Positions 27,899-29,797 are shown, counted from the first letter of the stretch. The stretch is 57,243 nt of DNA from Thermoplasmatota archaeon (GCA_029932465.1 JAOZQA010000006.1:1-57243), one strand, 5' to 3'. The notes: generated by a model from the letters alone, not told the origin. Translations and numbers: made by a program.

Positions 27899-28597
27899 GT
27901 GGTTATTATGAACTGCCTATTTGGAAAAGTTGTATATGGAAGTTCTATAATCATCATGTTAATTATTTCTGGTTGTTTAAATGATTCTTCGGATACCGCG
28001 GAGAAGGTGAAACTAGAGGGTGGAGATCAGGATGGATACATTCAGATATTAGCAGACCTCCTTCCGAACATAACAGCGGGGATGATAATTGCTGATGGTG
28101 AGGGGGCATGGGTGGGGGTTGGTATGGGTGGCCAGAACAAATTGATAATGAGGAGCCTTTTCAGGTTTAACATGGCTCAGTATGAGCGGGGAAGTGTGGA
28201 ATTCTACTTTAAGGTTAGGGATTTGGTTGGCTCCCCCGGAAAAATAGATGTTTATATCGTTCCTGATCTTGGGAGTCTCTCTACAACATCTGGAGATCCA
28301 ATTGACCTGAAAGCGGAGTGGTCAAGTTTGAACAATGGAACACGCATTAAAACAGTCTATGTACAGACCGCCTCCTCGGGCTCTGCCAACCCTGTAGGAA
28401 CACCCGATGACGTCATATACGCTCAGCTTGGGAGGTGGTTTTCTATAACCCTATCGGAGGAGGACGTAACGGGGGGAATAAGTGGAGGCCACCTGTCTAT
28501 AATGTTCAGAGCTAGGGACGAGAACATGGATGGAGGCAACGCAGTGGTTATATCCACATATGAATCCGGAGATATCCCTTACTACATTTCTCACTGA
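27899..28597 (+). CDS. Putative archaeal lipoprotein
   Basis: Hydrophobic stretch ending ISGCL (archaeal lipobox). Beta-rich domain with RSLFRFN. Start may be ATG 27908. Confidence 0.7.
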   Translation: MVIMNCLFGKVVYGSSIIIMLIISGCLNDSSDTAEKVKLEGGDQDGYIQILADLLPNITAGMIIADGEGAWVGVGMGGQNKLIMRSLFRFNMAQYERGSVEFYFKVRDLVGSPGKIDVYIVPDLGSLSTTSGDPIDLKAEWSSLNNGTRIKTVYVQTASSGSANPVGTPDDVIYAQLGRWFSITLSEEDVTGGISGGHLSIMFRARDENMDGGNAVVISTYESGDIPYYISH

Positions 28598-28668
28598 TGA
28601 TATGGCCACATTACTAGCATTCTTTGACGAGAGGATTTCAACAATGGTTCTATTCTTTGATACTTTTA

Positions 28669-28684
28669 CAAAAAAATTAATTAA
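28669..28684 (+). promoter_or_regulatory. Candidate BRE/TATA for small RNA
   Basis: CAAAAAAATTAATTAA ending 26 nt before the 28711 stem. Confidence 0.45.
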
Positions 28685-28710
28685 TGAAGAGAGAACTATA
28701 ATAAACGTAA

Positions 28711-28797
28711 ACCGAAGGGAAGCAGCACACCTCTTTGAGGGACTTTACACCCCAGTCTCTCCTACTTTGGAGGCTTCCCTTCGGTCCCGCTGTTTTT
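28711..28797 (+). ncRNA. Candidate small four-way-junction RNA of unknown family
   Basis: Perfect 13-bp closing stem ACCGAAGGGAAGC/GCTTCCCTTCGGT enclosing three 4-bp hairpins, upstream TATA-like box, downstream TGTTTTT. Strand inferred from those signals. Confidence 0.5.
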
Positions 28798-28839
28798 ACC
28801 ACCCGGGGCCTGCCCACCCCGGGACACCAAGCCCCCAGC

Positions 28840-29388
28840 TCACCTCATTTTTATTTTATCAAGCACGGGGGGAAGGAGTGCCTTTACCTTCTGATAGAAC
28901 CAGATGAACTTCTCTGCCTCATCTCGTATCGCTTCCTCAATCTCTGCATACCTCCTCTCCTCGTACAGCTGGGGTATACGTTCCCCGGGGCACTTAAGTT
29001 CAGCCACAAGCTCCAGGTTTGCACCCTTGAAACTCCCTTTGTTCAGTATCACAAGAACAGGTTTCAGATCAAGGTAGGGCTTCTTTCCGAAGAGCCAGTT
29101 GGCTGATATCTTCTTCTGCAGCTGAAGCCATGCCCTCTCCCTTAGGAAGGCAAAGATGAAGGGTATGTTGAATCCTATCGGAACGAAATCAAAATCCCCC
29201 CCTCCTATGAAAGTGTCAAGGAAGCTCCTTAGCACTCCCTCCTCTCCCATCTCCCACTCTTTCAATATCACAAGCTCCCCCTCGATTCTCCCTGATATTG
29301 CCCCCAGCCTCTGATACTGAACGGTTATGATCTTGTCTCTGCGCGGGTCCAGCCCAGTGGTCTCTATGTCAAGGTAGTACTCCGCCAT
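28840..29388 (-). CDS. RNase H-like (DEDD/DnaQ-type) 3'-5' exonuclease domain protein
   Basis: YYLDIETTGLDP..DKIITVQYQ, PIGFN, LDLKP. Start ATG 29388. Confidence 0.8.
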   Translation of the reverse strand: MAEYYLDIETTGLDPRRDKIITVQYQRLGAISGRIEGELVILKEWEMGEEGVLRSFLDTFIGGGDFDFVPIGFNIPFIFAFLRERAWLQLQKKISANWLFGKKPYLDLKPVLVILNKGSFKGANLELVAELKCPGERIPQLYEERRYAEIEEAIRDEAEKFIWFYQKVKALLPPVLDKIKMR

Positions 29389-29392
29389 ACTT

Positions 29393-29797
29393 TCATACCC
29401 TCTTCCACTCATAATATGGTTTCACGTTGAAATATATCCCTACCCTCTCAGCATCCCTTCTCGATGGTGTGGTACCCTCCATCTTCTTCGCGCAAACAAA
29501 ACAGGCCTTCACCTCATCCCCCATTCCAACGTTCATTGAGTGTATTCTCATGGGGTAGGCGTGCTTTGGGCATATAGATGCGGAGCAGAAGAAACACTCC
29601 TCCTCCGCCTCCTTGCCGCATTCAAGGCACCTTCCATGCTGGGCAGGAGTTGCGGTGGCGGCTCTATCTGGCTTTTTTGAGCTCTCTTCTCTCCAGCCCT
29701 CAAGCTCCCTCATCATTGCATCATACTCTGCTCCGCAGGAGGGGCAGAGACTCTCGCCCGCCCTTAAACGGCCACCGCAGACAGGACAGAAAGTCAT
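29393..29797 (-). CDS. Zinc-ribbon / zinc-finger protein
   Basis: FCPVCG..CPSCG, CLECG..CFFC..ICPKH, CFVC. Confidence 0.8.
   Translation of the reverse strand: MTFCPVCGGRLRAGESLCPSCGAEYDAMMRELEGWREESSKKPDRAATATPAQHGRCLECGKEAEEECFFCSASICPKHAYPMRIHSMNVGMGDEVKACFVCAKKMEGTTPSRRDAERVGIYFNVKPYYEWKRV

Follow-up and report, generated by a model that had tools for sequence, protein, structure and literature searches.

The stretch of DNA analyzed here, referred to below as the window, comprises 57,243 nucleotides of a Thermoplasmatota archaeon (GCA_029932465.1 JAOZQA010000006.1:1-57243; host genome G000), and its genes include those for aEF2, aEF1A, PGK, and a pilus-type ATPase. A candidate small RNA element sits between two convergent genes of this window, and its parts are collected in Table 1. 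The upstream neighbor is a lipoprotein-like open reading frame (ORF) of 232 amino acids (27899-28597, plus strand) without a Pfam match, and the T-rich block behind the stop codon of this gene may represent its oligo-T termination region. The downstream neighbor is an ORF of 190 amino acids on the opposite strand (28840-29412, minus strand), the N-terminus of which (DIETTGLD) is exonuclease-like, with MAEYYLDIETTGLDP presumably representing a DEDD exonuclease-like motif; a search of this ORF against Pfam matched no family at 1e-3. In the congener G001 the order PGK, tRNA-Thr, ORF, element, ORF recurs; G001 and the host together make up a GTDB family of two species, and both members carry the element.

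Table 1. Coordinates of the candidate element and its immediate surroundings, counted from the first letter of the window.
Feature	Position	Strand	Remarks
Candidate small RNA element	28669..28797	+	Thermoplasmatota archaeon window, host genome G000
T-rich block GGTTCTATTCTTTGATACTTTTAC	28645..28668	+	3′ of the stop of the upstream 232-aa gene
BRE/TATA-like box: A7 run, then TTAATTAAT	28669..28685	+	Sequence, unchanged in congener G001
Predicted transcription start region, 2-4 nt 5′ of P1	28707..28710	+	Predicted from TATA spacing
P1 clamp helix, 5′ strand ACCGAAGGGAAGC	28711..28723	+	Perfect 13-bp pairing with 28773-28785
Interior, 49 nt, pyrimidine-rich, G-poor (18% G), contains conserved TACACCCCAGTCTCTCCT	28724..28772	+	
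P1 clamp helix, 3′ strand GCTTCCCTTCGGT	28773..28785	+	Perfect pairing with 28711-28723
3′ tail CCCGCTG + T5 tract (28793-28797), candidate oligo-T terminator/U-tail	28786..28797	+	
GC hairpin CCCGGGG-CCTGCCCA-CCCCGGG, conserved	28803..28826	+	

The GC hairpin that follows the element may belong to a longer read-through RNA; otherwise it is a feature of its own at the beginning of the convergent gene's 3′ UTR. Hairpins of the form CCCGGGG-N(4-14)-CCCCGGG occur 12 times in the genome, two of these being within the window (28803-28826 and 55005), and the 7-mers CCCGGGG and CCCCGGG account for ~3,000 occurrences in the genome.

An earlier reading made from the sequence alone had singled out this locus as an unannotated cloverleaf-like small RNA with a promoter and a terminator of its own, and the parts from which that description was assembled are indeed in place. 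The perfect 13-bp stem (28711-28723/28773-28785, referred to as P1) is present, the host sequence contains the three inner hairpins CCTC/GAGG (28730-40), GACT/AGTC (28741-57), and CTCC/GGAG (28759-72), and the promoter-like CAAAAAAATTAATTAA (28669-28684) and TGTTTTT (28791-28797) both lie where that reading had placed them. A stem such as P1 exceeds chance expectation, since perfect inverted repeats of at least 13 bp with a spacer of 3-80 nt number 20 in the 1.92-Mb assembly, compared with 1 in a block-shuffled genome. As read from their sequences, a tRNA-linked cassette accounts for 15 of these 20 repeats and another RNA family for 2, the remaining 3 including the element. When stems were scanned with a descriptor of the layout (stem of at least 11 bp, G-poor loop of 30-65 nt, T-run), 6 of 728 passed, and the layout therefore forms no large class; the top two were the element and a copy, on contig C7, of a clamp-helix RNA family described below.

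The tRNA-linked cassette is ~165-170 bp long, sometimes tandem, and found behind many tRNA genes of the host genome, as at L138:86-159 (G000 C1:29525-29598) and behind at least 10 others, including C65:37686, C1:14879, C82:5692, C15:10610, and C53:23836. Each cassette contains the T-arm of its own tRNA in inverted copy, a pair of hairpins showing covariation from copy to copy, and a second tRNA 3′ end, duplicated from the T-loop onward, and similar structures are found in the sister family. ARAGORN reported 40 tRNA genes in the host genome, with none for Trp, Tyr, Lys-UUU, Pro-UGG, Val-UAC, or Leu-GAG; the absent genes may contain introns and have escaped the default run, or may be located in the unassembled 5%.

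Comparison of the two species revealed how unevenly the locus has diverged. Third codon positions of three flanking genes are 41%, 51%, and 58% identical between G000 and G001, the flanking proteins 75% and 79%, the intergenic DNA directly 3′ of the upstream gene 68%, and the tRNA-Thr gene 98.7%. The block 28645-28690, which includes the A/T box, is 96% identical (100% in a local alignment), and the RNA region 28707-28797 is 91% identical (83 of 91 positions, the eighth of the 8 differences lying at the 5′ edge); set against the 41-58% at flanking third codon positions, these values indicate that the element region is under selection. Between the two lies a 16-nt spacer (28691-28706) of 44% identity, with conservation returning at ~28707, and downstream of the element 28798-28830 is again 91% identical, with changes in the hairpin loop and its flank, before identity drops to 11% over the next 9 nt. 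A conserved box, a free spacer, and a conserved body form the pattern expected of a promoter followed by a transcribed structured RNA. Seven substitutions fall within 28711-28785, six of them in the interior and the seventh in the outermost P1 pair only, a placement that fits structural constraint on the clamp.

The claim that the promoter-like box stands at the right distance finds its measure in the tRNA genes of the same genome. A pure A/T 8-mer is found upstream of 28 of the 40 tRNA genes, at a median distance of 26 nt from the mature 5′ end and within 19-32 nt in 22 of the 28, and the tRNA promoters consist of an A-rich stretch followed by TTTAWATA, with T-rich trailers after the genes. 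The corresponding TTAATTAA of the element, which is a modest match to TTTAWATA and identical in G001, likewise ends 26 nt before the first P1 base, and the start is therefore predicted at ~28707-28709. The conserved combination of an A-rich BRE and a TATA box ~26 nt upstream fits what an independent promoter-driven gene would be expected to carry. The proposed terminator fits as well: archaeal RNA polymerase terminates at oligo-T, and the T5 tract, which begins 8 nt after the stem, is identical in G001 together with its flanks (CCCGCTGTTTTTACC). The predicted RNA would be ~85-90 nt long, or ~120 nt if the polymerase reads through the hairpin at 28803-28826.

Folding of 28700-28800 with ViennaRNA gave a minimum free energy (MFE) of -36.9 kcal/mol for the plus strand (z -4.68, 0 of 200 shuffles being as stable) and -40.5 kcal/mol for the minus strand (z -4.07). 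The pairs of P1 form with probabilities of 0.89-1.0 in G000 and of at least 0.98 for 12 of the 13 pairs in G001, where T28785C turns the outermost pair into A.C (plus strand) or U.G (minus strand). The four-way junction proposed from the sequence alone is the MFE fold of the host element, but it is not maintained in the congener. There, C28731G replaces a central pair of hairpin 1 by a G.G mismatch, the pair probabilities of this hairpin being 0.0, while C28743T and T28744C reduce hairpin 2 to three pairs. The four-way fold reaches -36.0 kcal/mol in G000 and -27.9 kcal/mol in G001, compared with -34.2 and -32.7 kcal/mol for a three-way fold (UUG-GGG/CCCCAG plus hairpin 3), and the best fold of G001 is a third option, GAGGGAU/GUCUCUC. 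Two alternative interior helices are compatible with both species. According to these models, only the clamp helix P1 is robust, and the fold of the interior is ambiguous.

The element proved to be narrowly distributed. Searches by BLAST and with R1, a covariance model of the element, found it only in G000 and G001 among 26 genomes of the order and 37 of the class, and both methods returned one copy in the G000 assembly. A pattern scan of 185,579 species genomes yielded 38 loci, 35 of them under bacterial titles; of the 3 loci inspected, L077 is the G001 copy, and L060 and L082 are unrelated. Metagenomes scanned via the neighboring protein gave 30 loci, 2 of which carry the element, two scans of viral contigs gave 16 loci with 0 model hits, and a plasmid BLAST search returned no match to the element. 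Both metagenome contigs are identical to the G000 sequence, so the distinct sequences of the element number two, and with only two such sequences covariation cannot appear. An RNAalifold comparison of the two sequences gave 0 compensatory pairs among 29. The distribution of the element looks genus-restricted or, more broadly put, lineage-restricted.

The suggestion that the element belongs to no known family agreed with the Rfam and tRNA models. Rfam 15 gave no match at gathering thresholds, the matches in the window being two tRNAs only, and a permissive scan of 28400-29000 (E ≤ 10) returned three hits, all lacking credibility, at 14-17 bits where the cut-offs are 60-90. ARAGORN likewise found only tRNA-Ser (23351) and tRNA-Thr (27764) in the window and none at the element; RF00005 matched the same two, with no tRNA hit at E ≤ 10 in 28400-29000, and the element is without T-loop, D-loop, and CCA, as had been noted from the outset. 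A multi-copy origin of the MITE type is excluded, because the element is single-copy in the genome (a single match in the 1.92-Mb assembly) and the profile of the tRNA-linked cassette is without a match to it. Kinship with that cassette was considered and rejected, the shared AACCGAAGG being too short and the nhmmer cassette profile giving -2.0 with a match that lies outside the element. The overlapping ORFs (28735-29106, plus strand; 28677-28817, minus strand) differ in length in G001, and the substitutions between the two species are, by eye, without codon periodicity, so the element is non-coding. Taken together, and as far as sequence comparison can tell, it is a genuine, selected, single-copy, non-coding element.

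We hold with moderate confidence that the locus is a single-copy, genus-restricted gene, on the plus strand, for a small non-coding RNA of ~85-90 nt. Briefly, archaeal RNA polymerase would start at ~28707-28709 from the BRE/TATA box (28669-28685) and stop at the T5 tract (28793-28797), some read-through into the hairpin at 28803-28826 being possible. In the resulting RNA, a clamp helix of 12-13 bp would enclose the pyrimidine-rich, G-poor interior of 49 nt, and a short tail ending in U would come after the helix. With low confidence, we suggest that the clamp might expose the C/U-rich interior together with the U-tail, either to purine-rich RNA for base-pairing or to a protein, e.g., an Sm-like protein, and that the RNA might act in trans like other archaeal intergenic sRNAs. 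It might also be a diverged paralogue of an order-wide clamp-helix RNA family with the same layout. If transcribed, the element would constitute a clean, compact, lineage-specific archaeal sRNA gene with a recognizable promoter, clamp helix, and U-tail.

This order-wide family, which is real, undescribed, and marked by strong covariation, is represented in G000 by two paralogous elements, C7:1302-1402 (plus strand; L136:153-253) and C16:4457-4558 (minus strand; L142:1501-1602), with relatives at L143-L165. Each copy combines a clamp of 13-14 bp with a G-poor interior and a U-run and is conserved in G001, and a search of Rfam gave no match for either. A covariance model built from the two (R2) found matches in 21 of the 26 genomes of the order at E ≤ 0.1, with 1-3 copies each. 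The family layout consists of a 12-14-bp clamp helix, a near-invariant CAAUCCUCUC-UUCUU directly 5′ of the closing strand, and then a U-run, and some diverged members have stem sequences that are wholly different yet paired. Across 20 aligned members, 12 of the 14 P1 pairs change on both sides in an alignment fitted to the model, and 97.4% of cells are paired, compared with 44-57% when the partners are slid. In the sister family, 6 of 7 tested copies are convergent to the gene for TiaS (tRNA-Ile2 agmatidine synthetase), which is not so in G000.

That the element is a diverged third paralogue of this family would refine the preferred reading rather than compete with it, and we regard it as a tentative possibility. 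The geometry is that of the family, with CAGUCUCUCCUACUU, 5 nt, the 3′ strand of P1, and GCUGUUUUU in succession, a stem of 13 bp where the family has 12-14, and a T5 tract 8 nt downstream where the U-run of the family follows at 4-9 nt. The element was the top hit of two models, scoring 21.4 bits with R2, with which accepted diverged members of the sister family score 21-30 bits, and 23.6 bits (E 1.4e-3 in 120 kb) with R3, built from 20 family members to the exclusion of the element. With R3, the G001 copy scored 18.7 bits, the minus strand 14.9 bits, and the best unrelated hit 12.2 bits. However, the family hallmark AAUCCUCUC, found by eye in 19 of 20 aligned members (the other having a single-base variant), reads AGUCUCUCC in the element, and the R3 score is marginal, corresponding to a whole-genome E of ~0.05 by extrapolation. 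An nhmmer profile of the family, which uses sequence only, recovers at E ≤ 10 just the two known copies and not the element, and the element model R1 found no family member. Moreover, a plain hairpin elsewhere scores 35 bits with R3 (150 of 864 candidates were scored, the element not among them), which indicates that the model rewards generic stems; part of the score of the element is also expected, because the family was chosen for a stem and loop size like that of the element.

Two further structures were encountered in the course of these searches. A plain GC hairpin followed by GCTCCTTTT lies at L142:983-1059 (G000 C16:3939-4015, minus strand), on the strand of the C16 copy and ~450 nt away from it. 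R3 gives this hairpin 35 bits even though the family motif is missing, and GUAG...CUAC-GCUC-U-run is common to the hairpin and the C16 copy. Another clamp candidate, at L135:127-192 (G000 C37:35376-35441, plus strand), combines a 13-bp perfect stem with a 40-nt C-rich interior. This candidate is identical to G001 over ~76 nt, lies between a conserved upstream TATA-like box and a second hairpin on its downstream side, and found no match in Rfam.

The strand of the element is the point at which a different explanation has to be weighed. The element could be the structured 3′ UTR or terminator region of the convergent 190-aa gene, with the A7/TTAATTAA box read on the minus strand as the oligo-T terminator TTAATTAATTTTTTTG of that gene. 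This we consider unlikely, in spite of several features that speak for it. The minus strand folds at least as well (energies and z-scores given above), T28785C in G001 keeps the outermost P1 pair, as U.G, on that strand only, and 3′ of the stop of the 190-aa gene the first T-run of at least 3 is, by eye, GGTTTACGTTTATTAT, directly after the stem, followed by T7. Since no T-run lies between the stop (28840) and the far side of the element, the mRNA of the 190-aa gene probably runs through the element. On the other hand, the family model R3 prefers the plus strand (23.6 vs. 14.9 bits), C28743T keeps a pair, as U.G, on the plus strand only (in one alternative helix), and the sharp drop in conservation at 28691-28706 is what is expected of a promoter-to-start spacer. 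Orthologues of the 190-aa ORF, found in 16 of 24 sister-family genomes at 48-56% identity, are followed by entirely different DNA that is unrelated to the element region. The promoter geometry likewise favors the plus strand, and the sole A/T stretch that could serve as a minus-strand promoter (28845-58) is not conserved in G001. Transcription may also proceed on both strands.

A wider proposal would unite the element and the order-wide family in one undescribed superfamily, in which the clamp displays a C/U-rich sequence resembling the 16S 3′ end (AUCCUCUCU and CAGUCUCUCC vs. AUCACCUCCU) and the RNAs serve as decoys or maskers of purine-rich ribosome-binding sites (RBSs). We consider this improbable as it stands; if true, the clamped-RNA superfamily would be a dedicated RNA layer of global translation control in these archaea. 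The 3′ end of the host 16S rRNA reads GGAUCACCUCCU, and the complementarity to RBSs that had been pointed out from the sequence alone survives in part: CACCUC resembles an anti-Shine-Dalgarno sequence, but the segment concerned, CACACCTC, reads TACGTC in G001. The ACACCCCA sequence is conserved in G001 and forms a loop or part of a helix, depending on the fold. Base-pairing of the element with RBSs, which had been suggested on the same grounds, fared poorly, as genome matches complementary to CACACCTC lie, by eye, mostly inside coding sequence. Complementary 12-, 13-, and 14-mers number 79, 19, and 5 in the genome, compared with 25, 6.3, and 1.6 expected under a crude null of uniform composition, and the sites are mostly codons such as CTC AAA GAG GTG within genes, so that no specific target emerged. 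In a complementarity scan against rRNA, no match of at least 12 nt was found.

The original interpretation as a tRNA-sized cloverleaf or tRNA mimic with anti-Shine-Dalgarno loops has become very unlikely. It draws on the four-way junction as the MFE fold in the host species and on the sequences CACCUC and CACCCC, which are complementary to GAGGUG and GGGGUG; anti-RBS loops are known from sRNA154 and sRNA41 of Methanosarcina mazei, as described in a review (PMC5867862). A conserved cloverleaf, however, is contradicted by the broken hairpin 1 and the weakened hairpin 2 of G001, where the fold at -27.9 kcal/mol loses to alternatives at -32.7 kcal/mol and hairpin pair probabilities are at most 0.28. 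The segment CACACCUC becomes UACGUC in the congener, complementary genome sites are mostly coding, and neither tRNA model match nor tRNA consensus was found, as set out above. A purely DNA-level element (a protein-binding inverted repeat, a mobile-element relic, or a replication palindrome with no RNA function) is just as improbable: many inverted repeats of the genome do belong to a tRNA-linked DNA cassette, and P1, being identical in both species, offers no RNA-specific sign such as G.U pairs, but the element is single-copy and outside the reach of the cassette profile (nhmmer -2.0), the 13-mer is not found again, as it would have to be among origin-binding repeats, the arms are, at 49 bp apart, presumably too distant for a simple dimeric binding site, and the interior and T5 tract are conserved too.

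The preferred reading is thus of an orphan small RNA gene of an uncultured Thermoplasmata archaeon, not tRNA-like, which we consider plausible. To our knowledge, very few regulatory RNAs have come from uncultured Thermoplasmata-type archaea, and we know of no 13-bp clamp around a whole interior in sRNA154 or sRNA41 of M. mazei. Known from two sequences and offering no clue to its function, this orphan element is of modest immediate value.

Among known systems, the archaeal guide RNAs share the size range of the element and a lower stem with an internal open region. H/ACA sRNAs carry an ACA/ANA box directly 3′ of the lower stem, a pseudouridylation pocket, and a K-turn, and C/D box sRNAs carry C (RUGAUGA) and D (CUGA) boxes at their termini. 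Both classes were rejected as candidates: no ACA/ANA follows the stem on either strand, the 3′ flanks being CCCGCUG (plus) and UUUACG (minus), no RUGAUGA/CUGA boxes were seen by eye in 28700-28835 on either strand, and none of the Rfam guide-RNA families matches the element. Hammerhead-type cores are, by eye, likewise absent from it. A tRNA (RF00005) is similar in size and also combines a closing helix with three short hairpins, which the element shows in the MFE fold of one species; it differs in the model match, conserved loops, and CCA that the element does not have and in a closing helix of 7 bp, compared with 13 bp in the element.

The element also resembles, in kind, the M. mazei sRNA154 and sRNA41. 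According to the same review (PMC5867862), they are independent intergenic small transcription units of narrow lineage, as is predicted for the element, with stable stem-loops and pyrimidine-rich loops complementary to RBSs. The element differs from them in having no sequence kinship and in that its best anti-RBS segment is not conserved in the congener. Its clamp-helix layout has no counterpart in Rfam. The order-wide family shares with the element a closing helix of 12-14 bp, a G-poor interior of 40-50 nt, and a CU-rich CUCUC motif that precedes the closing strand by ~5 nt; in both, GCU and a U-run follow that strand and Rfam offers no match, but the family has AAUCCUCUC where the element has AGUCUCUCC. 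Compared with the element, the order-wide clamp-helix family is the stronger lead for experiments on archaeal riboregulation.
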